In this document: positions 1 through 54,893 of the stretch, piece by piece | Numbering within the stretch: the first letter of the stretch is position 1 | Layout of the letters: the number at the start of each line of letters is the position of its first letter | From: a bacterium | GTDB taxonomy: Bacteria; SM23-31 | Assembly (NCBI GenBank): GCA_965249485.1 | Contig: OZ252239.1 | Coordinates: 770,445-834,444, forward strand | DNA: 64,000 nt | Reading direction: 5' to 3' | The notes under the pieces: generated by a model | What the model saw: only the letters and a program-made list of their open reading frames with translations | Told to the model about the DNA's origin: nothing | Databases searched by the model: none | Program-made: the position numbers and the translations under genes

Positions 1-110
1 TTGGCGCAACCATCCTTCAGGAACCGATGAAGGTGATGGAATATGGGGTATTGAGTGTTATTCAGGACCCCTCCGGAGCAGTGTTTGCAATGTGGAAAGC
101 GAACCAATAA
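1..110 (+). CDS. C-terminal fragment of a VOC/glyoxalase-family protein; the gene starts upstream of the window
   Basis: Open frame from the window edge to TAA at 108-110. The tail ...DPSGAVFAMWKANQ resembles glyoxalase/VOC C-termini. Confidence 0.4.
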   Translation, partial: GATILQEPMKVMEYGVLSVIQDPSGAVFAMWKANQ

Positions 111-122
111 TGTCAAGAAAGG

Positions 123-638
123 TTGAACATGAGTGCAAAACCAGCATCAAAATATCCGCATTATGACCGGATTCAGGCACACCACTGCGGGTTAGGTGAT
201 ATTCCGAAAAGCGATGACGGCTATTTTGAAAAAATGATCATGATAATATTCAGATCGGGTCTGAATTGGAGTGTAATCGAAAAAAAATGGCCCAACTTTG
301 TTGAGGCATTTGTCAACTTTTCTGTTGATAAAGTAGCAGAGTTCGATGTACCCGATATCGACAGGCTGATGGAGGATCAGGGAATTGTCAGAAACTACAG
401 GAAAATCGAAAGTACCGTGAAAAATGCCAGAGAATTTCAGGCGATTAAAAAGGAGTTCGGTTCATTCGGTGCTTATCTTGATTCCGTCAGCAAAGAAGGT
501 GAAGAGGAACTCTGTAAACAGATCAGTAAACGGTTTGCACATATGGGAAAATCGACATCCATGATGTTCCTCAAATCAGTCGGCCTCGAAATGCCTGAAA
601 TGACCCGTTACTGGATGGAAAAGCAGAGAATGGTATAG
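123..638 (+). CDS. DNA-3-methyladenine glycosylase I (Tag)-like protein
   Basis: 171-aa ORF. The central segment GLNWSVIEKKWPNFVEAFVNFSVDKVAEFDVPDIDRLMEDQGIVRNYRKI aligns to the Tag core GLSW...RENYR..F..FDP.KVA...E.DVERL..D.GIIR.R.KI. TAG stop. Confidence 0.6.
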   Translation: MNMSAKPASKYPHYDRIQAHHCGLGDIPKSDDGYFEKMIMIIFRSGLNWSVIEKKWPNFVEAFVNFSVDKVAEFDVPDIDRLMEDQGIVRNYRKIESTVKNAREFQAIKKEFGSFGAYLDSVSKEGEEELCKQISKRFAHMGKSTSMMFLKSVGLEMPEMTRYWMEKQRMV

Positions 639-698
639 CGTCCTCCCGAAAATAATTCAGATAGGTACACATCTTTTTTCTTGACAATGGGAAATTGA

Positions 699-1058
699 GT
701 GATTATATTTAACCATATGGTTAAATATTCTACCAACACACTCAATGCAACATTCGGAGCACTTGCCGATCCGACCCGGAGAGCAATACTGCAGCGTCTT
801 GCAGGCGGTGAACAAACCGTTATGGAACTTGCAGTACCGTTTGAAATGTCTCTCCCTGCTGTGTCCAAGCATCTCCGGGTTCTTGAACATGCCGGACTTT
901 TGATTCAGATAAAGGATGGCAGGATCCGTCGGTGCCGTCTTGTTGCGAAACCGATGAAAGAAGCGTCAAAATGGATTGAACACTACAAAACGTTCTGGGA
1001 AGCACAGTTCGATTCATTAGAGCAGTTCTTCATCAAAAACCAAAAAAAGGATAAATAA
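699..1058 (+). CDS. arsR: ArsR/SmtB-family metalloregulatory transcriptional repressor; alternative start at 717
   Basis: HTH signature LADPTRRAILQRLAGGEQTVMELAVPFEMSLPAVSKHLRVLEHAGLL. 119 aa. TAA stop. Confidence 0.85.
   Translation: MIIFNHMVKYSTNTLNATFGALADPTRRAILQRLAGGEQTVMELAVPFEMSLPAVSKHLRVLEHAGLLIQIKDGRIRRCRLVAKPMKEASKWIEHYKTFWEAQFDSLEQFFIKNQKKDK
705..728. promoter_or_regulatory. Perfect 24-bp palindrome ATATTTAACCAT|ATGGTTAAATAT overlapping the arsR start region; putative ArsR/SmtB operator for autoregulation
   Basis: 12+12 inverted repeat read directly from the sequence. It is centred on an in-frame ATG (717-719) of the ArsR ORF, about 10 bp downstream of a TTGACA motif at 683-688. 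Confidence 0.5.
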
Positions 1059-1059
1059 A

Positions 1060-1512
1060 ATGGACGCAACCATAAATATCTCCGATACATCACTCCAATT
1101 GAAGAGGACATTTCCGGTACCCTGCGAAAAAGTTTTTGATGCCTGGAAAGATCCCGAAAAACTCCGGCAATGGTTCGGCCCGAATAAATTTACTGTACCC
1201 GAAATTGAGGTCGATTTCCGTGTTGGTGGGTCCTATAGTGTTATTATGCAGTCACCTGAAGGTGAACAACACCATGTGGCCGGTTCATATCAGGAGATTA
1301 TCGAAAACAAAAAGATTGTCAAGACATGGATTTGGCAAAATGGTGCAATGGCAGGAGTAGAGACGACGGTTACGATTGAGTTTAATGCACTCGATGATAA
1401 TACCGAAGTTGTTCTGACACATGAAGGATTTCCGAATGAGGACGCTGCCGGCCATCACAATAAAGGCTGGACAAGTATTTATGATAATCTCGAACAGTTT
1501 TGCAAACAATGA
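1060..1512 (+). CDS. SRPBCC-family (Aha1/AhSA1-like) protein, commonly co-operonic with ArsR regulators
   Basis: KVFDAWKDPEKLRQWFGP ... VDFRVGGSYSV ... TWIW pattern typical of Aha1-domain SRPBCC proteins. Starts 2 nt after the arsR stop. Ends with TGA. Confidence 0.8.
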   Translation: MDATINISDTSLQLKRTFPVPCEKVFDAWKDPEKLRQWFGPNKFTVPEIEVDFRVGGSYSVIMQSPEGEQHHVAGSYQEIIENKKIVKTWIWQNGAMAGVETTVTIEFNALDDNTEVVLTHEGFPNEDAAGHHNKGWTSIYDNLEQFCKQ

Positions 1513-1515
1513 CAG

Positions 1516-1948
1516 GTGCAAATAATGCCGGAAATACTCCATAAGCTACTGATCAAAAGACCACCCGAAGTGGTATATGAAGCGATCACAACACAGGACG
1601 GTTTGGCCTCCTGGTGGACACGGGATTGTGTTGCTGTTCCCGAAGAAGGTTCGGTCGCTGAGTTCTATTTTGATAACAGATCTGATTTCGGAAAGATGAA
1701 AATTACGAAACTCGAAAAGGATACTTGCGTATCCTGTGGTCTGTATCGACAGTGTTGATGAGTGGAAAGGCACCACAATTGTTTTTAAATTGTCTTCTCA
1801 TACTAAAGGATCAATGCTTTTCTTTTCTCATAACGAGTGGAAATCAACCGAAGGAATATTCCCTAACTGTAATTATGACTGGGCACGGTATCTTCTAAGT
1901 CTAAAAAAATATTGTGAAACGGGGATTGGGGAACCACATCCAGGTTAA
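1516..1948 (+). pseudogene. Second tandem SRPBCC/Aha1-like gene, disrupted by frameshift(s) near 1700-1760
   Basis: N-terminal ORF (PEVVYEAITTQDGLASWWT) and C-terminal ORF (DEWKGTTIVFKLS...FSHNEW) lie in different overlapping frames (1516..1758 and 1736..1948). A third frame encodes RILWSV between them. Confidence 0.55.
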
Positions 1949-2043
1949 CTATAAACGAAAGATTATTTTATAGCAGTCATACCAATTAATCGATCATCAC
2001 TAAAACCGCGTTTAATACAATAAAACGATAGAGGAGGAATCCT

Positions 2044-2238
2044 ATGTATACTGTATCGTGTCGTGATTTAGGCGGAGACTGTGACCATACTGTCTCCGGT
2101 AACACAATTGATGAAACAAAACAGGCAATGTGGAAGCATGCACAGGAAGACCATGCCGATAAGATCGCTACGCTTTCCGATGATCAGAAAAATGGTATGG
2201 AAATGAAACTTACAAACATCCTGAGTGCACAATCCTGA
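2044..2238 (+). CDS. DUF1059-family small metal-binding protein
   Basis: MYTVSCRDLGGDCDHTVSGNTIDETKQAMWKHAQEDH matches DUF1059 (xFSCrDaGmDCdf...H..H). Strong RBS AGGAGGAAT 6 nt upstream. TGA stop. Confidence 0.75.
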   Translation: MYTVSCRDLGGDCDHTVSGNTIDETKQAMWKHAQEDHADKIATLSDDQKNGMEMKLTNILSAQS

Positions 2239-2607
2239 AACCATAAATTTATTCCGGTGCGAAACGGTCATAGAAGACTATTTCGCGCCGGTCAATTGTG
2301 TTCCATCGGGAACTCTGTTACTCAACGTTCTGTTATGATGATTAGAAACAATCGCGGGGCAGAGAGGACAAAAATGGCAGCACTCCTGAAAAAAATCCGA
2401 AAATCTTTCTTTTCAATCATAAAATTTCTGCGCCAGCCTGCAAAAATGCGGCACCAGTCCGATGACATATCCTGCGGATGCTGAGCATATTCATATAATA
2501 TATCTGCTAATTTCCTCTTGACTCTTATCAAAATAACCCGTAGCATAAAGCGTTTTTGATTCCATGCTGCAGACCACTGTCACTTTCACGCAACGATAGG
2601 AGGCACA

Positions 2608-2979
2608 ATGCAGGCATTAACAACAATAGTTGCAAGAATTCTTTACGGTCTGCCGATGATCATCTTCGGCATTTTTCATTTTATGGCCGTCGGCGACATG
2701 GCTGGAATGATTCCCATTCCGGGAGGCATATTCTGGGTTTATCTGACGGGAGTAGCGCTCATCCTCGCCGGAATAGCCATTATCATCAAAAACAGGGGAC
2801 GGCTTGCGTGCCTGCTTCTGGCGCTCATGATCGGAATTTTTACTCTCGCGATCCATATACCGGGCATTCTTGACCCCAACACAATGCAGATGGAGATGAT
2901 GAACGCTCTGAAAAATTTGATCATGATCGGCGGTGCATTGGGTTTTGCCCACATTTTTGAAGGAGAAAGTAAATCGTAG
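2608..2979 (+). CDS. DoxX-family membrane protein
   Basis: 123 aa with four predicted TM helices, DoxX-like. RBS AGGAGGCAC upstream. TAG stop. Confidence 0.75.
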   Translation: MQALTTIVARILYGLPMIIFGIFHFMAVGDMAGMIPIPGGIFWVYLTGVALILAGIAIIIKNRGRLACLLLALMIGIFTLAIHIPGILDPNTMQMEMMNALKNLIMIGGALGFAHIFEGESKS

Positions 2980-3011
2980 ATAGAGCAAATACTGGTGAAA
3001 GGTCTTACAAA

Positions 3012-3050
3012 TAAGGGGCGGTGTACAATGTACCGCCTCTTATTTATTAT
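3012..3050. terminator. Bidirectional rho-independent terminator between doxX (+) and copA (-)
   Basis: GGCGGTGTACA...TGTACCGCC hairpin followed by TCTTATTTATT. Confidence 0.5.
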
Positions 3051-3070
3051 TAATCAGTGTAAATATGTCG

Positions 3071-5506
3071 TTACATTTTGAATTGCTTCATCGATAGAGA
3101 ATTGCTCACCACCGATATTGAACTCATCGCCATCGCCGCCGCAGCGATCATCGGATTGAGAAGAAATCCGGTTAGAGGATAAAGGACTCCCGCAGCAACA
3201 GGAATACCAATAATATTGTAGATAAACGCAAAAAAAAGGTTTTGTTTGATTTTTTTCATAGTGTATGAACTCAAAGTGAGCGCACGGCCGACATCGGTTA
3301 CATTGTCTTTGATGAGAACAATATCCCCCGTTTCGATCGCAACATCAGTACCCGATCCGAGAGCTATGCCGACATCTGCCTGAGCCAGAGCCGGTGCATC
3401 ATTGATTCCGTCACCTGCCATAGCCACAGTGTGTCCCTTCTCCTGCAATTGCTTGATTACCTCCGCTTTCTCCTCAGGCAGCACTTCCGCAATGACCGTA
3501 TCGATTCCGACTTCACGGGCAATTGCGTTTACCGTCAGTTTATTGTCTCCCGACAATAGGACAACATCGATATTACTGTCACGCAGTATTTTGACAGCAA
3601 CTGCAGCATCGTCTTTGATGGTATCGGCAACCGCAATAATTCCGGCTGCTTCATTGTTAACACCGAGTACCATGACGGTTTTTCCGTCAGATTCTAACCG
3701 GGAAATCTCCGAATGAAGGACATTGGTATTCAACGTGTGCTGCTCCAGGAAATGATTATTGCCGAGCAAAATATCATTATCCTTATAATGTGCCTGTATT
3801 CCCATCCCCGGAACTGCGGTAAATTCAGATGCAGAACCAAATGTTATTCCTGATTGTTCTGCTTTTCTGACAACCGATTCTGCCAGCGGATGCTCAGAAT
3901 TTTTTTCGACAGCCGCTGCAATTTCCAACAGTTCATCCTCGGTCATTTCGTTTATCGGAATCAGATCGGTTACCTCCGGATGTCCCTGTGTCAGCGTCCC
4001 TGTTTTGTCAAAAACAACGGTTGTGATTTTATGTGCCGTTTCAAGCGCTTCACCATTTTTAACTTGTATTCCATACTCTGCTCCCTTGCCAGTACCTACC
4101 ATGATTGCTGTCGGTGTAGCGAGCCCAAGCGCACAGGGGCAGGCAATTATCAACACCGATACAAAATTAACGAGTGCAAAGATCAAAGATGGTTCCGGAC
4201 CAAACGTGTACCAAATAAGAAATGTCATTCCGGCGATTCCGAATACGACCGGAACAAAGATAGATGCAACTTTGTCCGACAGTCGCTGAATCGGTGCTTT
4301 GCTTCCCTGAGCTTGTTCAACGAGTTTGATGATCTGAGCAAGCAGTGTGTCGCTTCCGACTTTCAACGCCTTAACACGGAGAGCACCGTTCTTATTGATT
4401 GTGGCGGCGATAACGGAATCACCTTCGCTTTTTTCGACCGGAATCGGTTCACCTGTCACCATCGATTCATCCACTGTTGAACGGCCGCTCAGCACAATGC
4501 CATCCGCTGGGAACTTCTGTCCCGGCTTTACAAGAACAATATCATCAACCAGCACATTTTCAATTGGTACCAGCTGTTCCTTTCCGTCCCGCTCAACATA
4601 CGCTGTCTGTGCCTGCAGTCCCATAAGCTTTTTGATAGCTTCCGACGTTTTTCCTTTTGCTCGTGCTTCGAGGAATCTGCCGAATAAAATAAGCGTAATA
4701 ATAACCGCTGCCGTATCATAATAGACAGCCTGCGATACTTCAGGAATCCACTGCGGCACAAACGTCACAATCGTACTAAAAAAATATGCTGCACTTGTCC
4801 CGAATGCAATCAGAGTGTTCATATCGGCCCTACCATATTTGAAAAGGCTTCTGAGCCCACGATAAAAGCGCTTCCCGCCATAGAATTGCACCGGTGTTGT
4901 CAAAAGAAATAAAATGTATAATACAGTCTGCCGTTCAATGTCTGCAAGCAGGGGGATAAAGGTGTGAAAACTGAATAAGAGGATAATAACGGTCAAGATA
5001 CTACTAATAAGAAGGGTATTTTTAAGTGTGTTGATTTCACGATTTTGTGCTGTTTGTTGAGTGTTTTCGGATGAGTCGTATTCTATAGCCGTATACCCGG
5101 CTTCCTCAATCGCCTTTTTGATTTCGGTACTCGTTAGAACAATAGGTTCGTATTGTATGGTGGCTAAACTGTTACCGTATGATACCGAAACAGATTCAAT
5201 GCCAGGTAAGTCTTCGAGAGATCTGCGGATAACTCCTTCGCAGTGCGACGATTCCATGCCGATGATTTTGAAGGAGAGTTTTCCGGAAAGTAAATCAGAA
5301 GGTGCGGGAGTATATCCGGCATCTTTAATCGCTTTGACCAGTGTGGTCAGATCACATATTGTTTCATCGTAGCGAACCGTTGCCTTAACTGTCGCAAGAT
5401 TAACACTTGCCTCTTCCACACCGGGCACATTATTCAGTGCTTTTTCGATTACGGAAACACACGATGCGCAATGCATGTCCTGGATGACAAATTCCTGAAC
5501 AGCCAT
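3071..5506 (-). CDS. copA: Copper-translocating P1B-type ATPase with two N-terminal HMA domains
   Basis: 811 aa. [14 protein letters not shown] and [16 protein letters not shown] motifs, CPC transmembrane motif ([12 protein letters not shown]), DKTGTLT phosphorylation motif, [10 protein letters not shown] hinge. TAA stop. Confidence 0.95.
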
Positions 5507-5581: not shown

Positions 5582-5725
5582 TTATATTTTCCTACTGAAG
5601 GCAAATTCCTTGTCCATAGTGTAGATAACCGGTAGAACGATCAATGTCAGGATAGTCGGTGACACAATGCCGCCAGCCATCGGCACGGCGGTCCATTTTC
5701 AGACGTGCAATCCTGCCAATCTACT
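5582..5725 (-). pseudogene. Remnant 3' end (about 40 codons) of a second HME-RND (CzcA/CusA-like) pump gene
   Basis: Minus-strand translation KWTAVPMAGGIVSPTILTLIVLPVIYTMDKEFAFSRKI* aligns with the C-terminus of the intact pump at 7110-7230 (WKRIAAPMIGGIVTSTILTLVVIPVIYAIVRE...). About 75% nucleotide identity. Preceded by an in-frame TGA, with no upstream gene body. Confidence 0.6.
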
Positions 5726-6983
5726 TCACAAAGGTAACTTTTTTCGAAATTATTCGGTCTTGTGATTTTAAAACTATTAACTAGACCACTCCGGCAGCAA
5801 CGTTTCCCGAATCCGTTTTACCGTTCCACTTGACTGTGTGGATACCCTGTCCAAACTTATTCTCAGTTATTGTACTCACGAGCTGTCCGGTAACGTTAAA
5901 GATCTGTATAGAAACATCTGTCTGTTTTGCGAGAGAAAATTGTATTGAGACCGATGGATTAAACGGATTGGGGTACGCTTCGATAAGACCAAAATCTTCG
6001 GGAATAATAACATTTTCAGACTCATCTATATTGGTTACTAATCCTTTGAACACAGCTACATAATCATACACCTCGGAAGATACGAGAGAAAAATTATTTT
6101 TGTCACTATTGTGTTCAATAGAGCCATTGAACGGTATCCAAGCATTTGTATTCCCATCCCAATAGCAGAGAATCAATTCATCATCTTGTATAGACAGACT
6201 GTCGAGTAAGTTTTGACTGTAATGAAATCTTTGGGTTATACCCGTCTCAAAATCCATGTGACCGGAGCCCCAATGTCCCATATGACCTCCCATAATATGT
6301 CCACCTCAGTTACCATGCATCATATCATTGCCGGATTCATTGATAAATTCAAAATGATACCCGAGTACCATCTCACGGTCGGGACTTTCAGGCATGAGGT
6401 CTAATGGCAGCCTGTTCATATCGACAAAATATTTGTTTCCCCACATACCTCCAAAACCCATATGTCCCGGTGGAAAATTGATAAAACTTGCGCTATCAAC
6501 CGGACAATATATGTAAGTGGAATCAGTTATTACTCTATCAATCCAACTTCCCGACCAATGGTTCCCTTCGGAGAGATCCCGCCAAATAGCACCATTTAAC
6601 TCCTCGACGATAATAACCACGTAACCGTTAAATGAATCATGGACTTTGCCGGATACAGTTATTGATTCCCCATGATTGGGACAGTTAATCGTTTCTGGTG
6701 TATACCACCATGGTCCGAAAGCAAGCATGTAGTCGGTGTTTAAATCAAGATTTGTGTCGAGAAAATAGTGAGGCATAAATCCATTTTGCTCAATAATTAC
6801 GGATCCGGAAACAGTCGTATCCGGCAAGTTCTCTCCAAAGAAATAGTTATATCCATTTTCATGAATACCGCTGCTATGCTGTGGCTCAAAATGGTATTCA
6901 GACTCCTGAGCTCCAGCAGTAGTCGCTAATAAACAAATACAGATAACTGTAACAGATATGGCCCTTTGTATTGCGAGTAACAT
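5721..6983 (-). pseudogene. Secreted Met/His-rich putative copper-binding protein with a T9SS C-terminal sorting domain; the reading frame is interrupted by in-frame TGA (6306-6308) and TAG (5781-5783)
   Basis: ORFs 6306..6983 and 5781..6293 are in the same frame, separated only by TGA: ...GNDMMHGN*GGHIMGGHMGHWGSGHMDFE. The same frame continues past TAG at 5781 as LIVLKSQDRIISKKVTFVK*, the typical KK.hhhK end of T9SS CTDs. N-terminal signal peptide. CTD motif YPNPFNPSVSIQFSL. Confidence 0.55.
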
Positions 6984-7109
6984 TGTATTGCTCTTTCTTA
7001 AATAATAGACGTAAAGTCAAAGCCTCATAATAGTTTGATTCATCAAATTTAAATTAGTTACACACTTCAGAAAGATAAATTAACATATCTACTTGTGACA
7101 AATGAATTA

Positions 7110-10100
7110 TTACTTAGTTTTCATTAACGTACGTTTCAGGCTAATTTCTCTGACAATTGCATAGATGACCGGTATAACGACCAATGTCAGAATAGTCGAT
7201 GTCACTATGCCACCGATCATCGGTGCGGCAATCCGCTTCCAGACTTGGGATCCTGCTCCGGTACTCCACAGAATCGGAACGAGTGCAAATAAGGTTGTCG
7301 TGACCGTCATCATTTTCGGGCGGACTCTATCAACTGCTCCGGACATAACCGCCTGGTAGATATGAGAAATATTGAAATCCGTCCCTTTCTCTTTTTTCAG
7401 AGCGTCATACGCGTGATCGATATAAATAATCATCACAATTCCTGTTTCTGCTGCTAAACCTGCAAGTGCAATAAATCCAACCCACACCGCTACGCTCATG
7501 TTGTAATCGAGAAAATACATCAGCCAGATTCCACCGACGAGCGCAAAGGGAACAGAGAGCATGACTATGAGTGATTCCCACACATTTTTAAAATTGAGAT
7601 AGAGCAGTACGAAAATAATCAGCAGCGTGATGGGGACAACAAATTTCAGACGTTTACTCGCCCTCTCGATATATTCCCACTGTCCGCTCCAGATTAGGTT
7701 ATATCCGGATGGAATTGCAACACGGGACTCAATTATCGGCCGCGCCTGTTCAACATAGGTTCCAACATCGATATCCCGCAGATCGATATAGACCCAGACG
7801 TTCGGACGTGAATTTTCGCTTTTTATAACGGGAGGACCTTTTTTTATGTTGATCGACGCAAGCTGTGCAAGTGGAATCTGTTCACCCCGCGGTGTTGGAA
7901 TGAGAACCCGTTTCAACTTTTCAGGTGTATCGCGGAATTCTCTCCCATACCGGAGGTTGATCGGGTACCGTTCAAGCCCTTCGACACTCTGGGAAATATT
8001 CATACCGCCGATAGCAGTCTGAATAACATCCTGCACATCGCTGATCGAGAGTCCGTACCGGGCGATCTCATCCCGGTTTATATCGATATTGAGATAATTG
8101 CCTCCTACCGATTTTTCGGAATAAGCGCTTGCCGTACCGGGAATGTCCTTCGCAACGGCAGCGATTTGTCTACCGAGTTCTTCGAGAATCGCAAGGTCCT
8201 GTCCCGCAATTTTTATTCCGATTGGTGTCTTGATTCCTGTTGACAGCATATCGATTCGCGTCTTGATCGGCATTGTCCACGCATTGGCCAACCCCGGAAA
8301 CTGAATTGCAGCATCGAGCTCCTGAATCAATTTGTCCGGGGTCATTCCCGGACGCCACTGATCTTCAGGTTTCAGGGTGATGGTTGTCTCGATCATGCTG
8401 AGCGGAGCGGGATCAGTTGCAGTTTCAGCCCTGCCAATCTTCCCGAAAACCGTTTCAACCTCCGGAAAACTTTTTATGATTTTATCGGTTTGCTGGAGAA
8501 GTTCCCGCGCTTTGGTGATAGAAATACCCGGATCGGTTGTCGGCATGTAGAGCAAATCACCTTCATAGAGCGGTGGCATGAATTCAGTGCCGAGTTGATT
8601 ATACGGAAAAATTGTAACGAGCAGTATTACCATGGAGGCCAGAAGCGTTAATTTCTTGAATTTGAGAACCGTCTTTATTACCGGTCTGTATAGCCAGATT
8701 AATGCCCTGCTGATTGGATTTTTTGATTCAGGCCTAATGTTACCTCGAATCAGAAGCCCCAGCAAGACAGGAATCAATGTAATTGCCAGTATAGAAGATG
8801 ATCCCAATGCAAAGGTCTTCGTAAATGCCAGTGGTCTAAAAAGACGCCCCTCTTGGGCTTGTAAGGTAAATACTGGAAGAAACGAAAGGGTTACAATCAG
8901 TAACGAGTAAAACAGGGCGGGACCGACTTCTTTTGCAGAATCGGCAATAATCTTCCAGTGCTCTTTTTTCCCGGTATCCCGTTCAAGATGTTTATGAGCA
9001 TTCTCGATCATAACGACTGCAGCATCGACAAGCACACCGATTGAAATCGCTATGCCTCCCAGAGACATAATATTTGCATTAATATTCGTGTAATTCATAA
9101 TGATAAAAGAAATAAGAATACTTAACGGGAGTGAAAGAACCGCAACCAATGCACTACGGATATGGAGTAAAAAGAGTAAACAAACTATCGCGACAACGAT
9201 ACTTTCTTCCATCAATGTTCCGGTAAGTGTGTCGATAGCTCTACGGATAAGATTGGTCCTGTCATACACCGGTAATATTTCCACGCCTTCAGGCAGTCCG
9301 GTTTTTATCTCATCGAGTTTCTTTTTTACATTGTCTATCACAGTAAGAGCGTTTTCACCATACCGCATTACAACAATCCCGCCGACCGTCTCACCGATGC
9401 CATCCCGCTCTACAAGTCCTCTCCTGATTTCCGGTCCGAGGCCGACAGTCCCGAGTTGACGGAGCAGAATCGGAATACCATTTTGATCGACACTTACCGC
9501 GATGTTTTTCAAATCATCTATTGACTGAATATACCCGTTACTGCGAACCATGAATTCAGTTTCGGCAAGTTCCAGTAACCGACCGCCGACTTCGTTATTA
9601 TTCCGCTGGATCGCACGACGGACAGTACTCAGCGGCAGGCCGAAAGCCATGAGCTTATCGGGATCGACCTCAACCTGATACTGTTTTACAAATCCACCGA
9701 TGCTTGCTACTTCCGCAACACCGGGAACGGATGCGAGTTCATAGCGCAGAAACCAGTCCTGAATCGAGCGGAGTTCGGCAAGGTTATGCCTGTCACTTTC
9801 GACAACATATTCAAACGCCCATCCCACACCGGTTGCATCGGGCCCAAGCTGCGGAGTTACTCCTGCTGGCAGCCGGGTCGATACATAATTCAGATACTCA
9901 AGGACACGGCTCCGTGCCCAGTACATATCGGTCCCATCTTCGAAAATGATATAGACGAATGATATTCCGAAAAACGAGTATCCTCGGACAGTTTTCGCAA
10001 AAGGCACCGACAGCATCTGTGTTGTGAGCGGATAGGTGATCTGGTTTTCGACGATTTCCGGAGCCTGTCCGGGATATTCTGTCAGAATGATAACTTGAAC

Positions 10101-10232
10101 ATCACTCAAATCGGGAATCGCATCGAGAGGTATGTTAACCGCCGAATATATTCCGATAATTATTACAAAAAGAGCCGCTATAATAACCAGCAGTCTGTTT
10201 TTTATGGAAGCATCGATTATTTTCTCGAGCAT
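7110..10232 (-). CDS. cusA: Heavy-metal efflux RND transporter, CusA/CzcA (HME-RND) family
   Basis: 1040 aa, 12-TM RND architecture, high similarity to CusA/CzcA throughout. TAA stop. 4-nt gap to the upstream adaptor gene. Confidence 0.95.
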   Translation of the reverse strand: MLEKIIDASIKNRLLVIIAALFVIIIGIYSAVNIPLDAIPDLSDVQVIILTEYPGQAPEIVENQITYPLTTQMLSVPFAKTVRGYSFFGISFVYIIFEDGTDMYWARSRVLEYLNYVSTRLPAGVTPQLGPDATGVGWAFEYVVESDRHNLAELRSIQDWFLRYELASVPGVAEVASIGGFVKQYQVEVDPDKLMAFGLPLSTVRRAIQRNNNEVGGRLLELAETEFMVRSNGYIQSIDDLKNIAVSVDQNGIPILLRQLGTVGLGPEIRRGLVERDGIGETVGGIVVMRYGENALTVIDNVKKKLDEIKTGLPEGVEILPVYDRTNLIRRAIDTLTGTLMEESIVVAIVCLLFLLHIRSALVAVLSLPLSILISFIIMNYTNINANIMSLGGIAISIGVLVDAAVVMIENAHKHLERDTGKKEHWKIIADSAKEVGPALFYSLLIVTLSFLPVFTLQAQEGRLFRPLAFTKTFALGSSSILAITLIPVLLGLLIRGNIRPESKNPISRALIWLYRPVIKTVLKFKKLTLLASMVILLVTIFPYNQLGTEFMPPLYEGDLLYMPTTDPGISITKARELLQQTDKIIKSFPEVETVFGKIGRAETATDPAPLSMIETTITLKPEDQWRPGMTPDKLIQELDAAIQFPGLANAWTMPIKTRIDMLSTGIKTPIGIKIAGQDLAILEELGRQIAAVAKDIPGTASAYSEKSVGGNYLNIDINRDEIARYGLSISDVQDVIQTAIGGMNISQSVEGLERYPINLRYGREFRDTPEKLKRVLIPTPRGEQIPLAQLASINIKKGPPVIKSENSRPNVWVYIDLRDIDVGTYVEQARPIIESRVAIPSGYNLIWSGQWEYIERASKRLKFVVPITLLIIFVLLYLNFKNVWESLIVMLSVPFALVGGIWLMYFLDYNMSVAVWVGFIALAGLAAETGIVMIIYIDHAYDALKKEKGTDFNISHIYQAVMSGAVDRVRPKMMTVTTTLFALVPILWSTGAGSQVWKRIAAPMIGGIVTSTILTLVVIPVIYAIVREISLKRTLMKTK

Positions 10233-10235
10233 GAT

Positions 10236-12173
10236 TTACAGCCTCCCTTGTTCGATGGAAAAATCATCGGCTGAATCAACATAGAGGACTTCATGGCTGC
10301 TTTCGAACGATTGTAATTCTTCAGACTGGTTGTCCATTAACTCTTTGAGATTCATTCCGCATCGGGGACACGTTCCACCGGATGATGAAAACACCAGATC
10401 CTCTTCCATCGGACAGGTATGTGTTACAGCGCCATCACCTATCACCAGGACAGTTTTCTCTGTCCATGAAGCGTATTCGGTGAGCGGATTAATATCGACA
10501 TTCGTAAGGTCGGATATTCTTATAATATCGCGGCCGGCAATGAGGTTATCAACTTTTGCCGTCTCTTCCGGTTCCATAGCATAAAGCGGCATACCGCAGC
10601 GGGGGCAGAATCCCTCTCCGTCAGAAAAGACAAGGTCTTCTTCCATGATGCAAAAATGAGTTACGTGCCCTTCGCCGAGAATAATCGCCGATTGGTTGCC
10701 CATTTTCTGCGATGTTATTTCCTCATGAGTGTGCTCTCCAACTTCTTCCTGCACCGGTTTACGTGCGGATGTTTGCTTCGACAGCATTTTCATCTGTGCT
10801 TCACGCAGCCGGCTCTCGGAATCGATGAGAAACTGTGCCGAAGTGACGACCCGTTCGCCACCTTCCAGTCCTTCGACAACAGTATAATAGTCATCCGACT
10901 CAATTCCGGTGACTACTTCACGCGGTTCAAATTTTCCTCCTCCGAGATCGAGAATGACAACACTCCGTTCCCCTGATATAATGACCGAACTCACCGGGAT
11001 GATTAAATCCTCCCGCTCTGATTGTGATGCTATTTCAACGTTTACATACATATCAGGTTTCAGCAGCATATCCGGATTGTCAAATTCAATCCGGACCCTG
11101 ATCGTTCTGGTTTGTGCATCGAGATAGGGATAAATAAACGATATAGTACCAGTGAATTCTTTACCCGGATAATACGTTAGGGTCATGGTTGCCTGCTGAC
11201 CGATTTTTACCCAGGGAAGTTCGTATTCATAGATTTCCGCAAGCATCCAGACATGTGACAGGTCAGCAATTTCATACAAATGCGTATTCGGGATGATGCG
11301 TTCACCACCCGTAATCATTCTGTGTCTGACAATGCCGCTAATAGGAGAGAACAGGGTCATATTTTTAGTGGCCTGCTGCGTATCTTTGAGGTGAGCGATC
11401 TGCTCGGGAGTAATATCCCACAACTCAAGACGTTTCCGTGTCGATTCAAGCAGATCGTTCGATTGCTGAGCGACTTCGGAATATGCAGCTCCCTCAAAAT
11501 AGTCGGTGAATCTCAGCGCCTGCAGGTATTCCTCCTGTGTGGTGACGAGATCGGGACTATAAATATCGATCAGCGGATCGCCCTTGGTTACCTGTTGTCC
11601 CGCGAAGCCGACATACAATTTCTCAGCCCATCCCGATACTTTTGTGGTGACACCCATTATGCGGGTTTCGTCATAGACAATACGTCCGACAGCCCGAATA
11701 GTACGGGAAAGTTGTTTCCGCTCGACCGGAACAGATTGTACGCCAATATTCTGAACGGTAACAGGATCGATCGATATCTGACCGGGTGCAGGACTACTGG
11801 TAATATTTCTCCTCACAAGATTCATGTTGCAAATTGGGCATAATCCCGGCTCGGTTTCTTGGACATTCGGATGCATTCCGCAGGTATAGTAATAATCAAC
11901 ACCGGTAACGCCTTCAAGATTGAGTTGAGATGGTGCCTGAGCTCCGGGAAGTTCATCATCATACACCGGAACGAGGTCCATACCCATCGGTGATTTTCCG
12001 GGATTTTCAGATACATAAGCCGGGTCCATCGGTGCGACCCAGTAAGCAACTGTTCGTCCTTCTGCATTGTCACCGTCAGCACCCAAAAAATCATACCGGT
12101 GAAAAACCCACTGGACGGCAATCACAATTATCAGAATGGTGATCCATGTACTGGTGCGTAATTTTCGTGACAT
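10236..12173 (-). CDS. cusB: RND efflux periplasmic adaptor (CusB/CzcB family) with three CxxC heavy-metal-binding domains, one N-terminal and two tandem C-terminal
   Basis: 645 aa. Membrane-fusion core, N-terminal YYTCGMHPNV...GLCPICNMNL, and C-terminal repeats HFCIMEEDLVFSDGEGFCPRCGMPL and HTCPMEEDLVFSSSGGTCPRCGMNL. Confidence 0.9.
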   Translation of the reverse strand: MSRKLRTSTWITILIIVIAVQWVFHRYDFLGADGDNAEGRTVAYWVAPMDPAYVSENPGKSPMGMDLVPVYDDELPGAQAPSQLNLEGVTGVDYYYTCGMHPNVQETEPGLCPICNMNLVRRNITSSPAPGQISIDPVTVQNIGVQSVPVERKQLSRTIRAVGRIVYDETRIMGVTTKVSGWAEKLYVGFAGQQVTKGDPLIDIYSPDLVTTQEEYLQALRFTDYFEGAAYSEVAQQSNDLLESTRKRLELWDITPEQIAHLKDTQQATKNMTLFSPISGIVRHRMITGGERIIPNTHLYEIADLSHVWMLAEIYEYELPWVKIGQQATMTLTYYPGKEFTGTISFIYPYLDAQTRTIRVRIEFDNPDMLLKPDMYVNVEIASQSEREDLIIPVSSVIISGERSVVILDLGGGKFEPREVVTGIESDDYYTVVEGLEGGERVVTSAQFLIDSESRLREAQMKMLSKQTSARKPVQEEVGEHTHEEITSQKMGNQSAIILGEGHVTHFCIMEEDLVFSDGEGFCPRCGMPLYAMEPEETAKVDNLIAGRDIIRISDLTNVDINPLTEYASWTEKTVLVIGDGAVTHTCPMEEDLVFSSSGGTCPRCGMNLKELMDNQSEELQSFESSHEVLYVDSADDFSIEQGRL

Positions 12174-12211
12174 TGTACTTTCCTTAGATTAGTTGTTTTT
12201 ATTAAATATTA

Positions 12212-13534
12212 TTATAAACGCTGACCTGTCAGAAACTCCAGGTTTGCGATATTTTTCTTGTATTCCGTCAGCAATCGGTAATAATCGAGTTCAAATGTTA
12301 AGAGTGTAATCTGGTTGTTTAAAAGGGTCAGAAAATCGACCTTATTGACTTGATAACCAGAAATAGCTGAACTCAATGACTGTGTGGCCTGCGGAATAAT
12401 GACCTCATGAAGCAGTTGTATCCGTTCATCTGTCTCATCAAGTGAGGCGGTTACAACTGCGATTCGGGCGTCGTTCGAATTTTTCATATCCTTGTATGAA
12501 GATTCTGCCGCACGGACTTCTGCCAGTGCTTCTGAAACACCGTTGTCTTGTTTTCTACCGCTCCACAGCGGCAGATTTACCGAAAAATGTGCTGAAAGGA
12601 AATCCGGACGCTGTTGACGCTGCCCGTAGATTACGCCGAATGTCATGTCAGGCCAGTATTGTTTTCGTTTGAGTGATGATGCAATTTCTCTTCGGGCAAC
12701 CTCTTTTCGTGCTGCATTCAACATGGGCCGCCGTTCTGCCGATGTCTGCTGCAGTGTTGCAATATCGAGCGAAACGGAAGAATGAGTTAGTTCTTCTACA
12801 GGACCGATTAGTATGTCTATCGGCCTGTTCAGGAGTGCATTAAGTTCAGCAGTGGAGGCTTCACGATTGTTCCGGTAGCTTATCAGTTTGTCGAGCAGTT
12901 TACTCATCTCAACCTGCGCTTTCAGCACATCCTGTTGTAGCCCTTCACCGACTTCATATTTTTTCGATGCAATTGAAATAAAATCGTTTAGTATCTGCTT
13001 ATTTTTGAGCGTGATAGCAACCGATTTGTCAATCAGGTAGATATCAAAGAACGCCAACGAAATGTCTTTAATTACAGCGTTTCTCGTGTCGACAGCCGTT
13101 AGTCCCGCGATGTCGAATGCTTCCTCGGCTATCTGCTCTTTCAATGATGATATACCGGGAAAAGGGATAGTCTGCTTCAGGGAAATCTGTTTTTGCGTCA
13201 TAGGTTCTACTGTAAATCCTGCATCAGTCAAAGGGAAATTTGCGATGTTCAGGCTCAAGCTTGGATCAGGCCATGCGCCTGCCTGCGGAATGCGCAGTTG
13301 TGCCGATTCACTTTTTTGATCAGCGGCGAGTATCTCAGGATTATCACGGAGCGCAGCTTCAATCAGGCTTTCAAGTGCTACTACGGCACCATTGTTGTTT
13401 TCGACTGAATACGTTTTTGTCGTACCTGCTAAAGCAAAGTCGATAACAGCGTTATGCTGTTGAAATGCATAGCCGGTGCGGGTCAAAACGGAAACCAACA
13501 TGATAACGGCAGTCAAAACTTTTTTTGATCGCAT
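12212..13534 (-). CDS. cusC: TolC-family outer-membrane efflux protein (CusC-like)
   Basis: 440 aa, signal peptide, two TolC-type coiled-coil repeats. Immediately upstream of cusB on the same strand. Confidence 0.85.
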   Translation of the reverse strand: MRSKKVLTAVIMLVSVLTRTGYAFQQHNAVIDFALAGTTKTYSVENNNGAVVALESLIEAALRDNPEILAADQKSESAQLRIPQAGAWPDPSLSLNIANFPLTDAGFTVEPMTQKQISLKQTIPFPGISSLKEQIAEEAFDIAGLTAVDTRNAVIKDISLAFFDIYLIDKSVAITLKNKQILNDFISIASKKYEVGEGLQQDVLKAQVEMSKLLDKLISYRNNREASTAELNALLNRPIDILIGPVEELTHSSVSLDIATLQQTSAERRPMLNAARKEVARREIASSLKRKQYWPDMTFGVIYGQRQQRPDFLSAHFSVNLPLWSGRKQDNGVSEALAEVRAAESSYKDMKNSNDARIAVVTASLDETDERIQLLHEVIIPQATQSLSSAISGYQVNKVDFLTLLNNQITLLTFELDYYRLLTEYKKNIANLEFLTGQRL

Positions 13535-13702: not shown

Positions 13703-14179
13703 TTAAATCAGAAAAGCAGCATTAAGGAGAAAATATGGTGGTTGAGATGTCTGTATATTGTGAAAAACAGACGAATGTGTGATGCGTTGTTGAAAATCTT
13801 CGTGTTGATATGACGCTAATGAAGCGGAAAAAATCGTTTTTGTGGAATGGTACGTTTCAGTCCTGACAATGAGCTGATCAACATTGTCAGTATCGGAGAT
13901 AGTACTCAGTGACGCGCAGCAGCATGAACCGTCGTCAGCATAGTGGACTGTTGTAGAAAAATCGATCGGTTTTGTGTCCGGTTCGGTGCAGCATGAATCT
14001 TCAGCCGGTTCGGGAGCTTCCACCGGAATATCTGCGCAGTACCCGGCAGATTCGTTGATTTCCGAATGATCACTGCAGGCATTGCCGCTCACTCCACAGG
14101 GACAGACAGCTAATGCAAATCCGGAGCTTGCAAAACAGAGGACGAGTAAAACCGCTACTATTTTTTTCGACGTTTTCAT
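13703..14179 (-). CDS. Cys-rich small secreted protein of unknown function, first gene of the cus operon; start at MKTSKK (the ORF could extend to 14212)
   Basis: Signal peptide MKTSKKIVAVLLVLCFASSGFALA followed by CPCGVSGNACSDHSE...CADIP...DSCCTEPD...DGSCCCASL. No recognisable family. Confidence 0.45.
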   Translation of the reverse strand: MKTSKKIVAVLLVLCFASSGFALAVCPCGVSGNACSDHSEINESAGYCADIPVEAPEPAEDSCCTEPDTKPIDFSTTVHYADDGSCCCASLSTISDTDNVDQLIVRTETYHSTKTIFSASLASYQHEDFQQRITHSSVFHNIQTSQPPYFLLNAAFLI

Positions 14180-14768
14180 TTGTTTACTATTGTAAAACAA
14201 TTTCGAACACAAAAAAACTACAACAACCGTGCCATTGTCAAAATCGGCACATCGTGTGCGTAACTACAGGTTAGATGCCTCAAAATATAAAAGGTTACAA
14301 TTAAATTTGCAAGAACAATTATTATAAATAAGAATTTGTGTACGTTTTCTTCATTGATCGTTCACTGGTATGGTATAGTTCCCGTCTAGCACACCGAAGT
14401 CACTGCCCCAGCTTCATTGGTGATCTCAATTGTGTCTAATGATGTGGTCTCTTTAAATTAATTGTACAAATATGTAAGTAATTTAGTATTTCTTTATTAT
14501 TGAAAACTGAAAAAAGGCATAAATCGTTCCATTATTCAAAATATCATACAGTATTGGCCAACTGAAAAACGGAACTTGACAATGGGAAATATGTTTTGTC
14601 AGTAAGCGACATGCAAATCATTAATGATTATAATGCGAGTTCTTGTAAGAGGAAAATGTCCTTTTCATAAATAGTAGGCTTATCATCTCACGTTCTACCG
14701 TCAAGAAGTCTTCCTGCTTTCTTTTTATTGGTGCCGCCTCATTGCATAAAGAAAAATTATTACTCAAA

Positions 14769-30117: not shown

Positions 30118-30470
30118 ACCCGGAGCGTGGAAAGATGGCCGCGTTTCCCGATTATTTGGGAGATGAGGAAAGTCCGAACTCCACAGGGCAGGATGCCCCG
30201 TGAAAACGGGGTCGTTCCGGTTCACCGGAATGCAGGAAAGTGCCGCAGAAAATATACCGCCCCGTTCCTCGGAATGGGGTAAGGGTGAAAAGGCGAGGTA
30301 AGAGCTCACCGCGTTTTCGGTAACGGAAACGGCAGGGTAAACCCCATCCGGAGCGAGACCAAATAGAGGAGAAGAGGCTGCCCGTCTCATTTGACTCCCG
30401 GGTAGGTCGCATCAGATAAATGGCCATCCGCGACAGAATTCGGCTTACCGAGCGCTTCGGGTTTAGTATA
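30118..30470 (+). ncRNA. rnpB: RNase P RNA (bacterial type A)
   Basis: Conserved blocks GAGGAAAGTCCG, AGGGTGAAAAGG...GGTAAGAGCTCACC, GGTAAACCCCATCCGGAGC...CAAATAG, ACAGAATTCGGCTTAC, all in canonical order. No credible ORF across it. Confidence 0.85.
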
Positions 30471-49901: not shown

Positions 49902-50147
49902 TATGCCAATCCGGGATTGTGCAGAAAACTTTTAAATAATTGTAATGTTACTGATTGTTTAAAAATGCAATGCAGAGATTGCAACGTTGCAATTTCTGGG
50001 ACTAAATAATTAACGTATGTTCAAATCCCGCTTTTAGAAATTGCTGTACAAATAACTTGCTATTATAAACAGCAAATAGTATATTATAGTAATAATCGAC
50101 ACAAGGAAAGCACTATAAGAAAAATTTAATATAGATATAAAAAGAGC

Positions 50148-50222
50148 GCATTACGGGGTGGTTTTAGAAACCTGAGATTAAACCCTTTGAACCTGATCTG
50201 GGTAATTCCAGCGGAGGAAAAT
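50148..50222 (+). promoter_or_regulatory. TPP (thiamine pyrophosphate) riboswitch aptamer
   Basis: ACGGGGTGG...CTGAGA...ACCCTTTGAACCTGATCTGGGTAATTCCAGCGGAGGAAA matches THI-box conserved blocks (GGGGUGC, CUGAGA, ACCC..GAACCUGAUCUGGnUAAUACCAGCGnAGGGAA). Confidence 0.85.
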
Positions 50223-50249
50223 GCACATTGCACATTTTTTCAGGAATCG

Positions 50250-50287
50250 TAACCGCTTTTTATTTACAAGAGCGGTTTTTTTATTGC
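50250..50287 (+). terminator. Riboswitch expression-platform terminator hairpin
   Basis: AACCGCT...AGCGGTT stem followed by TTTTTTT, 35 nt upstream of the receptor RBS. Confidence 0.6.
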
Positions 50288-50320
50288 ACTATTTAACAGT
50301 ATCTTAAAGGAGGTTTTGTA

Positions 50321-52705
50321 ATGAAATTTAGTGTGTCATTTTATTGTTTTCTCTTCATATCCATTTTTTCTTTTAACCACATATTTGCCCAATCTGCCAT
50401 TAGGGTAACCGGAACTGTGATTGACAGTGAAACAGGGGTTCCGCTCAGCGGAGCAAATATTCTTGTCGAAGAGGCGAAAATCGGTGCAGCAAGCGATGCA
50501 GACGGCTCATTTACAATCCGTAACATCCCGCAGGGCAACTACACGCTTAGTGCAAGTTATGTTGGTTACGATGTCAGAAAAGAGAGAATTATCCTGAACG
50601 ATAGAGCGCTAAATATAAAGTTCATTTTAACACCAAAAATAACCGAAACATCGGAAGTTATTGTAACGTCGACACGGGCCCGCAAACGGGAAACACCGAT
50701 TGCATTCTCAAACCTTTCGAAAGAAGATATACAGCAGAGGTATCGTGCACAGGATGTCCCTTTTTTTTTGACAGAGCTGCCAGGAATCAATGCCTATTCG
50801 ACCAACGGAAATGGTATCGGTTACTCATACATCACTGTGCGCGGATTCAACCAGAGCAGAGTCGCTGTTCTCATTAACGGCATACCGCAGAATGATCCGG
50901 AAACGCACGACGTTTACTGGATCGATCTGCCCGATATTCTGGCAAGTGTGGAGGATGTACAAGTACAGCGCGGTGTCGGCAGTTCGCTCTACGGCGGATA
51001 CGGAATCGGCGGTACGATCAATCTCGAGACCAATAATTTCACCCATAACAGGGAAATCGATATCAAGTCGAGTGTCGGCAGCTTTAACACAAGAAAGTTC
51101 ACTCTCTCATTCAACTCGGGACTTATCGATAATTCATGGGCAATGAATACCCGGTTTTCGCGAATTCTGAGTGATGGCTACCGAGATCAGTCATGGGTAG
51201 ACCTCTGGTCTTACTATATCAGTGCTGTCCGGTACGGAGTTTCGACCACAACACGAGTCAATCTTTACGGGGGCCCGGAAAAAACTCATTTTGCTTTTTT
51301 TGGCGCTACACAGGCGGAACTGCAGCAGAATAGAAAATTTAATCCATCTGTTTTTAAAGACGACACGGATGATTTCAACCAGCCCCATTATGAGATTATA
51401 CATGATTGGGACATCAATGAAAATACCCGGTTGTCAAATACTGTCTTTTATATCAAAGGAGATGGTCATTTCCTGTTTCGTGCCCCCCGTCCATTTGACC
51501 CGACATTTGAAGATGTTGTCCAGAAAGACCTCCTCGATATTAAACAATATGGCTGGCTTCCCCGGTTTGAGCTAGAACATAAGGACGGCACGTTTATGAT
51601 CGGTGGTGAAGCCCGTTACAACTGGACTCGCCACTGGAAAGAGATTCAGACAAGTTTTCAAGCGCCGACTAACTTTTCGGATAATAGTTACGATGTGCCA
51701 TACGACTACATCGGGAAAAAATGGATGTACACCCTTTATGCCCACGAACTCTACAACCTAACACCACGTCTGACAGCAATGGTCGGTCTCCAGTTCATGT
51801 ACCACCGGTACGATGTTGGTGAAGACAAGGTACGGAACGTGGCATTCGATGTCGATTATTCGTTTCTGACTCCCCGACTTGGCCTAAACTATAACGCCAC
51901 AGATAATCTTAATGTATTTGGAAACTACTCTCAGGCGCGTCGGGAACCGTCAATGCGCGATTTGTGGGACCCGAGCGGTGTGTTCAATTTTCCGACGGCA
52001 ACACCATTTGCATTTAACACAATTGACGAAGCAAAGGGTATTTGGAAAGATCCATTTATTGTTCCCGAAGAACTCAGTGACTGGGAGCTCGGTGTCGGCT
52101 ATCAAAGACCGGGACTGCAGGCATCGGTCAACGGTTATATTATGGATTTTGAGAATGAGATCGTGAACAGCGGGTATATCGGTGTGAGCGGTGAAGCGAT
52201 CCGGAGTAACGCGGCGCGTACAATGCACAGAGGATTAGAGATGTCGCTCCGCTATGCACCGGTTACCATGATCGATTTTTCTTCCAATGTGACGATCAGC
52301 GAAAACTTTTTCAAATCAGGATCGCTGTTTGATTTTACAAATCAGCCGGTTAATGTACAAGATAAGACAATAGCCAACTTCCCCGAATTCATGTCAAATA
52401 ATCGTATTACTGTCCGGCACGATGATGCTTCGGTGTCATTCTATGTCCGTCATGTTGGCAAGCAGTATCTCGACAACACCCAGAATGAAAACCGCATCAT
52501 CGATCCATATACAGTAAGCTCTCTGTCACTGGCATACGGGCTGCGAAATATCGGTGAACTGCAGAAAATCGAGCTACTGCTCGATTTTTACAATCTTTTC
52601 GACACCGAATACGAGACCTATGGTCATATTGATTTCTTCGGAAATCCTGCATGGATACCAGGCGCCGAGCGCCACTTCTTATTTACTATTCGGGGAGTCT
52701 TATAG
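50321..52705 (+). CDS. TonB-dependent outer-membrane receptor with an N-terminal CarboxypepD_reg domain; probably a thiamine/TPP transporter
   Basis: 794 aa, signal peptide, plug domain, beta-barrel with a C-terminal aromatic-rich strand. RBS AAGGAGG. Directly downstream of a TPP riboswitch. Confidence 0.9.
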   Translation: MKFSVSFYCFLFISIFSFNHIFAQSAIRVTGTVIDSETGVPLSGANILVEEAKIGAASDADGSFTIRNIPQGNYTLSASYVGYDVRKERIILNDRALNIKFILTPKITETSEVIVTSTRARKRETPIAFSNLSKEDIQQRYRAQDVPFFLTELPGINAYSTNGNGIGYSYITVRGFNQSRVAVLINGIPQNDPETHDVYWIDLPDILASVEDVQVQRGVGSSLYGGYGIGGTINLETNNFTHNREIDIKSSVGSFNTRKFTLSFNSGLIDNSWAMNTRFSRILSDGYRDQSWVDLWSYYISAVRYGVSTTTRVNLYGGPEKTHFAFFGATQAELQQNRKFNPSVFKDDTDDFNQPHYEIIHDWDINENTRLSNTVFYIKGDGHFLFRAPRPFDPTFEDVVQKDLLDIKQYGWLPRFELEHKDGTFMIGGEARYNWTRHWKEIQTSFQAPTNFSDNSYDVPYDYIGKKWMYTLYAHELYNLTPRLTAMVGLQFMYHRYDVGEDKVRNVAFDVDYSFLTPRLGLNYNATDNLNVFGNYSQARREPSMRDLWDPSGVFNFPTATPFAFNTIDEAKGIWKDPFIVPEELSDWELGVGYQRPGLQASVNGYIMDFENEIVNSGYIGVSGEAIRSNAARTMHRGLEMSLRYAPVTMIDFSSNVTISENFFKSGSLFDFTNQPVNVQDKTIANFPEFMSNNRITVRHDDASVSFYVRHVGKQYLDNTQNENRIIDPYTVSSLSLAYGLRNIGELQKIELLLDFYNLFDTEYETYGHIDFFGNPAWIPGAERHFLFTIRGVL

Positions 52706-54389: not shown

Positions 54390-54765
54390 TATTAATCTTT
54401 TTCATTGTAAGGTTCGGTATCAGCGAAAAAAGGTGCCCCGTTTTAAACACTATGTGCAAATATGGACAGCCCGGTATGCATTATTACACATACCCGAATG
54501 TGATAATTAGTTATATTTGATTTGCGTAAGCATGAACTGGCTTCAATATAACCGATTGATTCATTGGGATGTAATACAATCGCAAAATAGATACCAGGAA
54601 ATTTCTCATGTTGTATCCCGGAAAAACTTTGCGATGGATAAACAATATTTTGTCATGTTGTTCGCAATACCGGGTGATTGTTGTAAACTTTTTTGATTGA
54701 TTTTTTTGAAAGAAATATTTATATTCTGTGTCTCTTAATATGTGCCTGAGCACTTCGGGGTGTAG

Positions 54766-54843: not shown

Positions 54844-54893
54844 TCTGGATGAAATGAAAACCGCGCTCACGAATGCTAAGGGACTCGATGGAT

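Follow-up and report, generated by a model that had tools for sequence, protein, structure and literature searches.

A gene with two in-frame stops between cusA and copA appears to be a pseudogenised member of an unannotated family of probable copper-binding type IX secretion cargo

The 64,000-nt stretch of bacterial DNA analyzed here (contig OZ252239.1, positions 770,445 to 834,444; hereafter the window) contains on its minus strand a 421-codon reading frame, referred to below as gene X, that is situated between the efflux genes cusA and copA and is interrupted by two in-frame stop codons. [quoted passage not shown] The intact members of this family are accessory genes of Cus/CopA efflux islands in bacteria of the Fibrobacterota-Chlorobiota-Bacteroidota (FCB) group (Cytophagia and Neomarinimicrobiota). 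The link between the family and the cus/cop islands, which we regard as almost certain, is the best-supported result of the analysis.

Translated from position 6983 to position 5560, gene X starts with MLLAIQ and reaches its final stop at a TAG codon at positions 5721-5723. The internal TGA stands in the context NDMMHGN-stop-GGHIMGGHMGHWGSGHM and the internal TAG in the context AAGVV-stop-LIVLKSQDRIISKKVTFVK-stop (Table 1). Public gene calls divide the frame into proteins of 225 and 170 amino acids (records P0025 and P0077). A preliminary description of this locus, which was made from the sequence alone, had reported two internal stops in one frame and a location between cusA and copA; the minus-strand translation bears out the former and the gene order the latter, with all three genes on the minus strand. 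Because both TGA and TAG end many of the 38 long open reading frames (ORFs) in the window (TAA, 20; TGA, 11; TAG, 7), they are ordinary stops here and the standard genetic code is used. An alternative code, in which TGA would be read as Gly or Trp and TAG as a sense codon, is ruled out on the same ground.

The TGA is located in a variable loop. Of the 47 members compared, 27 have a gap at the aligned column and the others G, M, F, W or N, and the codon adjoins a 10-residue Gly/His/Met expansion, GHIMGGHMGH, that is found in the window copy only. The TAG occupies the last position of the SG[VI]Y motif of the C-terminal sorting domain (CTD), a column that is Tyr in 91 of 91 family CTDs; given that this Tyr is invariant, the TAG corresponds to a single third-position change from TAY. 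Directly before it stands an extra Val codon, which among the same 91 CTDs is again seen in the window copy only. The TGA cuts the protein ahead of half of the beta-sandwich and the entire CTD, while the TAG takes off the last 20 CTD residues, so that in gene X no single open frame connects the signal peptide with the passenger and a complete CTD. As it stands, the window copy would yield at most a 225-residue periplasmic fragment without a sorting domain. Since the stops remove the CTD, it could function at the cell surface only if assembly error had produced both of them.

The flanking genes cusC, cusB, cusA and copA are intact over 2,936 codons, with no stop or frameshift, compared to two stops in the 421 codons of gene X, at whose rate about 14 stops would be expected in these four genes. 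A uniform rate of assembly error is therefore unlikely, and the stops are read as real. Gene X matches the family at 26 of the 30 columns that are conserved in at least 80% of members and departs from it at 4 of them, compared to 0 to 7 departures in intact members; so few departures indicate that the inactivation was recent. That the stops are real and the inactivation recent is, in our judgement, probable. It should be noted that a scan for promoters and terminators around gene X found nothing above the shuffled background.

Two other explanations of the stops were weighed. If both were errors in the consensus of a long-read assembly with low coverage, gene X would be an intact, working T9SS cargo of 420 residues. 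The provenance of the sequence speaks for such errors and hence against a pseudogene: the genome is a single 3.78-Mb contig, apparently a long-read metagenome assembly, and this contig was observed once only, with each 90% protein cluster having a single member from one contig and the contig records searched having no entry for the window's proteins. The names of sister assemblies imply 3-32x coverage, and the 3x assembly has many split genes; another gene of the window, encoding an SRPBCC protein, is frameshifted; and gene X itself is well preserved outside its stops. Long-read errors, however, are mostly insertions and deletions, of which gene X has none, and such errors would have spared the cus and copA codons entirely. 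The unique extra codon in the invariant CTD motif and the fact that in no other window gene does homology extend across an in-frame stop also argue against assembly error, which we therefore hold to be improbable. Far less probable still, to the point of being negligible, is that the TGA is decoded, either as selenocysteine or by programmed read-through, to give a longer product. UGA is the leakiest stop codon, and the corresponding loop of a few homologues does include a Cys, within GGCGG-like contexts. The sequence 3' of the UGA, however, forms no stable hairpin (-15 kcal/mol, compared to -16.8 for shuffled sequences; z=0.71), neither a tRNA-Sec nor an Rfam match to a selenocysteine insertion sequence was found in the 64-kb window, and the aligned column consists mostly of gaps with no conserved Cys in 47 members. 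TGA also terminates 11 long ORFs of the window, and the TAG at the invariant Tyr would truncate the sorting domain anyway. Selenocysteine in particular is ruled out by the absence of the hairpin, of a tRNA-Sec in the window and of a Cys column.

Profile searches of the C-terminus, which were run with both stops masked, matched TIGR04183 at 34.9 bits (cut-off 23) and PF18962 at 31.9 bits (cut-off 27) over residues 337-416, an interval that spans the TAG, and the same region scored 69 bits against a hidden Markov model (HMM) built from the family CTDs. The T9SS sorting domain proposed in the preliminary description is thus confirmed above both curated cut-offs, and the KK-hydrophobic-K ending that it placed beyond the TAG is there as KKVTFVK, among the 20 residues removed. 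The family-CTD HMM found no second CTD protein encoded in the 64-kb window. At the other end, the layout of the predicted signal peptide is common to the homologues. Between these, residues 1-330 have no Pfam (E<=1) or NCBIfam match, the N-terminal regions of 20 family members have no Pfam match, and a sequence profile search of the PDB gave no match at E<=10 outside the CTD. The profile-based check of the N-terminus that had been proposed along with the preliminary description therefore returned no known metal-binding domain, and with Pfam, NCBIfam and the PDB search all empty outside the CTD this candidate was rejected.

An AlphaFold2 (AF2) model, built with a 20-sequence alignment, is all-beta and confident, with a predicted local distance difference test score (pLDDT) of 79.6 and a predicted template modelling score of 0.67. 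Domain A, a predicted small beta-barrel, has weak Foldseek matches (E ~1e-2) to the oligonucleotide/oligosaccharide-binding (OB) folds of RPA32, Stn1, ExoVII and the LysRS N-domain. For domain B/C, a predicted beta-sandwich, the best PDB match is a ZU5 domain (E=5e-4; TM-score 0.65 on the target). Two Met-rich loops extend from the beta-sandwich; loop 2, in which the TGA lies, is predicted to be disordered, is variable and consists partly of the window-only expansion.

A word-indexed search identified one full-length homologue of gene X, P0001, an intact protein of 399 amino acids with 32% identity over 88% of gene X (E=5.9e-56); all other matches were to the CTD only. When a profile built from two N-terminal regions was searched against 1.84 billion cluster representatives, a family of 230 representatives at E<=1e-3, 70 of them at E<=1e-30, was recovered. 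Typical members have about 400 or 500-600 amino acids and share the order signal peptide, His/Gly/Met-rich linker, one to three copies of domain A (~100 residues; motifs HY[FY]LD, FGPxWYxP and WRD), domain B/C (~170 residues) and T9SS CTD, which ends K-x-M-x-L-x-K. Nearly all full-length members keep an intact CTD, so the possibility raised with the preliminary description, a CTD that is dead in all orthologues, does not apply. Apart from the sorting domain the family is unannotated, without a Pfam or PDB sequence match elsewhere. Over the 47 aligned members Met averages 14% in loop 1 and 18.5% in loop 2, compared to 3.1% in the rest of the protein, and individual positions are conserved (M222 and H254, each in 38 of 47; M243, 29; M221, 24). 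Because the homologous loop is Met-rich across these 47 members, the Met/His segment of gene X is, as judged from the alignment, not chance low complexity.

The genomic neighbourhoods of the family were sampled independently of metal genes, as loci were fetched, with 10 kb on either side, by N-terminal peptide patterns only. They comprised 4 loci from species-representative genomes (one Cytophagia and two Neomarinimicrobiota metagenome-assembled genomes and one unclassified bacterium) and 80 metagenomic loci; after removal of near-duplicates 71 were left, 31 of which had at least 10 kb of total flank. Homologues of CusA, CusB, CusC or CopA were encoded within 10 kb in 22 of these 31 long loci, and at least one recurrent island gene was present in 29. 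For a random gene, such proximity would by our estimate be seen in only a few percent of cases. In many loci the family gene directly follows cusA or copA in the same orientation, with gaps of 9-22 bp in loci L005 and L012; gene X likewise follows cusA by 126 bp and precedes copA, all on one strand. Other recurrent neighbours are P-II, DUF302, DUF2231 and HMBD proteins, along with a two-component pair of a sigma54 response regulator and its histidine kinase. Conserved synteny with metal genes, the lack of which had been named as a refutation of a copper-related role, is therefore present.

Two further recurrent neighbours, both without a Pfam match, were observed in loci L013, L021, L031, L044, L046, L050, L066 and L073. 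One is a secreted protein of 171 amino acids that is extremely Met-rich and consists largely of M-x-x-M repeats; the other is an outer-membrane-like, Met-rich protein of 300 amino acids with GGMMGNNGMMG loops. Both are candidate copper-binding genes of these islands.

Several known proteins resemble the family in part. CusF, PcoC, PcoE and SilE are accessory copper-binding proteins of Gram-negative islands and are periplasmic. CusF is the small secreted accessory of cusCFBA, an OB-type beta-barrel that holds metal via Met and His, and gene X recalls it in its OB-like domain, its Met/His-rich loops and its position right after cusA. In contrast to CusF, the conserved Met residues of gene X are in the beta-sandwich loops and not in the OB-like domain, and the protein is 3-5 times larger, with a T9SS CTD that would direct it to the surface rather than the periplasm. 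No Pfam match to the CusF family was found in residues 1-330 of gene X or in 20 members, nor was there a PDB sequence match, and CusF, with its Met2-His plus Trp site, was not among the weak OB matches of domain A. SilE and PcoE are periplasmic Met/His-rich metal sponges, accessories of sil and pco islands that are disordered without metal. Gene X shares with them the place in a copper/silver island and a loop predicted to be disordered; they are, however, small and nearly all disordered, whereas gene X is predicted to be a folded, multi-domain beta protein with a CTD and has no sequence similarity to them. CopM of Synechocystis, a Met/His-rich copper-binding protein of the periplasm and the cell exterior, shares the idea of a copper binder outside the cell in a resistance system, but it has a helical fold, is no T9SS export substrate and lacks homology to gene X. 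In the multicopper oxidases CueO and PcoA/CopA, Gly/Met/His-rich loops (MGGM, MHGM) are carried on a beta-sandwich, to which the PGxMMGGGMMxPDS and GxxMMxGxxGMMxF segments of the family are similar; because gene X has neither a cupredoxin domain nor copper-centre ligand motifs, no oxidase activity is expected. None of these proteins (CusF, SilE/PcoE, CopM and the CueO/PcoA inserts) is homologous to the family, has its combination of folds or uses T9SS.

Described T9SS cargo comprises proteases, glycanases, adhesins and gliding proteins. The intact family members share with generic type A cargo the signal peptide and the Ig-like CTD of about 80 residues ending K-x-x-hydrophobic-K, from which the window copy differs in that its CTD is truncated. 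T9SS has been linked to Ca2+/Mg2+ acquisition in Cytophaga hutchinsonii (PMC7906972, PMC11611037). Our literature search found no paper tying T9SS cargo to copper efflux islands or cus/cop genes, which agrees with the earlier statement that such a role is undescribed.

Met-rich Cu(I) sites are known in CusF, PcoE/SilE and the CueO insert, and the family loops resemble them. From the composition of the loops, their conservation and the synteny, we infer that the family may bind Cu(I)/Ag(I), a proposal to which we give about even chances. An intact member would be exported by Sec and then moved across the outer membrane by T9SS, whereupon its CTD would be cleaved and its passenger attached to the cell surface or released. 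Beyond the outer membrane, its thioether-rich loops could then bind Cu(I)/Ag(I), and the protein would buffer metal outside the cell, whether exported by CusCBA or coming from the surroundings. The preliminary description had suggested a cell-surface copper-sequestering role for gene X itself. Its copper-binding Met/His motif holds as far as the loops are Met-rich throughout the family; the likeness to CopB, PcoC and CusF is compositional only, with no Pfam match in residues 1-330, and the very stretch that was quoted lies in the variable loop predicted to be disordered and is partly the window-only expansion. Similarly, the proposed cell-surface copper-sequestering protein is retained for the family, given its CTD, Met loops and synteny, but not for the window copy, which has two stops and is part of an insertion that relatives lack.

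Some observations weigh against a role in metal binding. It is proposed without a recognised metal-binding domain, on the basis of composition, loop conservation and synteny; the OB and ZU5 fold matches are weak, and neither is metal-specific; some family members are not Met-rich (~1% Met); 9 of the 31 long loci (~30%) have no Cus or CopA homologue within 10 kb; and domain A is also found in large T9SS proteins with CarboxypepD_reg arrays and no metal context. These observations would suit a family that is tied to the islands and co-regulated with them without sequestering metal, serving instead as an adhesin, a shield or a sacrificial Met-rich oxidant sink, and OB and ZU5-like folds are indeed general binding scaffolds. 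Against such a role, Met clusters in two loops of fixed location, in which individual Met and His positions are conserved, and metal exporters, together with further Met-rich or HMBD proteins, make up most of the neighbours. We consider a non-sequestering role less likely than not; it concerns the function of the family and is compatible with gene X being a pseudogene.

Regarding domain A itself, its pairs are placed between long CarboxypepD_reg arrays and the T9SS CTD in P0096-P0129 (640-1190 amino acids), and because of this occurrence the domain also serves generic surface-protein stalks. Fusions of domain A to copper enzymes were looked for and none was found; the larger proteins have CarboxypepD_reg arrays.

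Comparison with relatives bears on how gene X came to its place. A PilT protein encoded in the window has 82% identity to proteins that are named candidate division KSB1. In five related loci (L086-L090), whose CusA is 94% identical in amino acids and about 85% in nucleotides, cusC-cusB-cusA is followed after 76 bp by copA, and gene X is absent; nor does it follow cusA in the outgroup loci L091 and L092/L093 (CusA 84-85% identical). The last ~110 bp of the relatives' cusA align twice in the window, at 7270-7162 and at 5730-5622. The former is the end of the working cusA, along which identity to the relatives is 90-95% until it collapses in the last ~55 nt, where a foreign tail, AIVREISLKRTLMKTK-stop, begins; at the latter, the second copy runs into a resident tail, ...PVIYTMDKEFAFSRKI-stop, corresponding to ...PVIYTLVKEFAYKRKI-stop in the relatives, with copA 75 bp further on. 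The G+C content of gene X is 40.3%, compared to 45-47.5% for the cus genes.

The two repeats form a reciprocal mosaic, in which copy 1 is relative-like and then takes the foreign tail and copy 2 is diverged and then takes the relatives' tail, and the right junction shows GTG[GA]AGTA microhomology. Such a mosaic fits a single crossover with a circular cusA3'-X intermediate. A piece of about 1.45 kb, consisting of a cusA 3' end, a spacer and gene X, would have recombined into the resident cusA 3' end and pushed the old cusA tail downstream, and gene X would have acquired its two nonsense codons after arrival or already carried them. Insertion in this lineage is very probable in our view. The opposite course, in which the relatives lost gene X by deletion between the repeats, is less parsimonious, as two further outgroups also lack gene X after cusA.

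Table 1. Gene X and its surroundings in the cus/cop island, in window coordinates.
Feature	Position	Strand	Basis
Gene X, T9SS-cargo family frame with two stops	5721..6983	-	Translation; homology to P0001
Predicted Sec signal peptide, MLLAIQRAISVTVICICLLATTAGA, cleaved before QE	6906..6983	-	Inspection, not a predictor: n-region Arg, 17-residue hydrophobic core, AGA-Q cleavage motif
Domain A, predicted small beta-barrel with OB-fold-like topology	6591..6824	-	AF2 pLDDT mostly 80-95; motifs PHYFLD, FGPWWYTP
Domain B/C, predicted beta-sandwich with two Met-rich loops; TGA inside	6042..6548	-	AF2
Met-rich loop 1, PGHMGFGGMWGNKYF	6426..6470	-	Mean 14% Met over 47 members
Met/His/Gly-rich loop 2, DMMHGN-stop-GGHIMGGHMGHWGSGHMDF, including window-only GHIMGGHMGH	6252..6329	-	pLDDT <50
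In-frame TGA	6306..6308	-	After residue 225
T9SS type A CTD, broken by TAG	5736..5975	-	TIGR04183, PF18962
In-frame TAG replacing the invariant CTD Tyr	5781..5783	-	91/91 family CTDs
Intact operon of cusC (12212-13534), cusB (10236-12173) and cusA (7110-10232)	7110..13534	-	OEP; HlyD_D23+HMBD; ACR_tran 807 bits
copA, intact P1B-type ATPase	3071..5506	-	E1-E2_ATPase + 2 HMA
Probable lineage-specific insert, ~1.45 kb: 17-codon new cusA tail, 126-bp AT-rich spacer, gene X	5716..7165	-	Absent in L086-L090
Direct-repeat copy 1, working cusA 3' region	7162..7270	-	Aligns to the relatives' cusA 3' end
Direct-repeat copy 2, displaced cusA 3' remnant ...PMAGGIVSPTILTLIVLPVIYTMDKEFAFSRKI-stop, with internal stop	5582..5730	-	79% nt identity to copy 1

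In the relatives L086-L089, about 5 kb (positions ~100-5200 of those loci) between an M20 peptidase gene and the cus operon, absent from the window, encodes a PMT_2 glycosyltransferase and a T9SS-CTD protein of 952-1131 amino acids; the latter shows that CTD cargo exists in this clade. The window CusB is unusually long (645 amino acids); it carries an HMBD at its N-terminus and, at its C-terminus, two extra HxCxMEEDLVFS...CPRCGM modules. At 13703-14212 on the minus strand is a Cys-rich ORF of 169 amino acids (CPCG, SCCTEPD, GSCCCAS) whose N-terminus is hydrophobic and which matches no Pfam family. It is conserved in all relatives as a gene of about 158 amino acids directly upstream of cusC; it may encode a metal-binding or regulatory partner of the cus operon.

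Elsewhere in the window, the SRPBCC/AHSA1-like gene at 1516-1948 (plus strand) is split into ORFs of 80 and 70 amino acids by a 1-nt insertion near 1745, compared to the 141-amino-acid orthologue in L086, a copy that itself has two compensating indels; the split could come from decay or from a long-read assembly error. At 50143-52705 (plus strand), a TonB-dependent receptor gene is immediately preceded by a thiamine pyrophosphate riboswitch (65.6 bits), which suggests thiamine-regulated uptake. A class A RNase P RNA and four clustered tRNAs (Pro, Arg, His and Glu), at 30121-30463 and 54756-55220 (plus strand), indicate an ordinary chromosomal context.

If gene X is indeed a pseudogene, the two public gene calls at this locus are fragments of one dead gene, and the locus shows an accessory gene inserted through homology with the neighbouring pump gene. 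We propose tentatively, at somewhat less than even confidence, that the intact members form a widespread and so far unrecognised extracellular arm of FCB Cus/CopA islands, and that the window records a horizontal capture via a cusA-homologous flank, followed by loss. The conserved Met positions make the family easy to test. Should the proposal be true, T9SS would gain a role in metal defence, and the family would represent a new functional class of its cargo.

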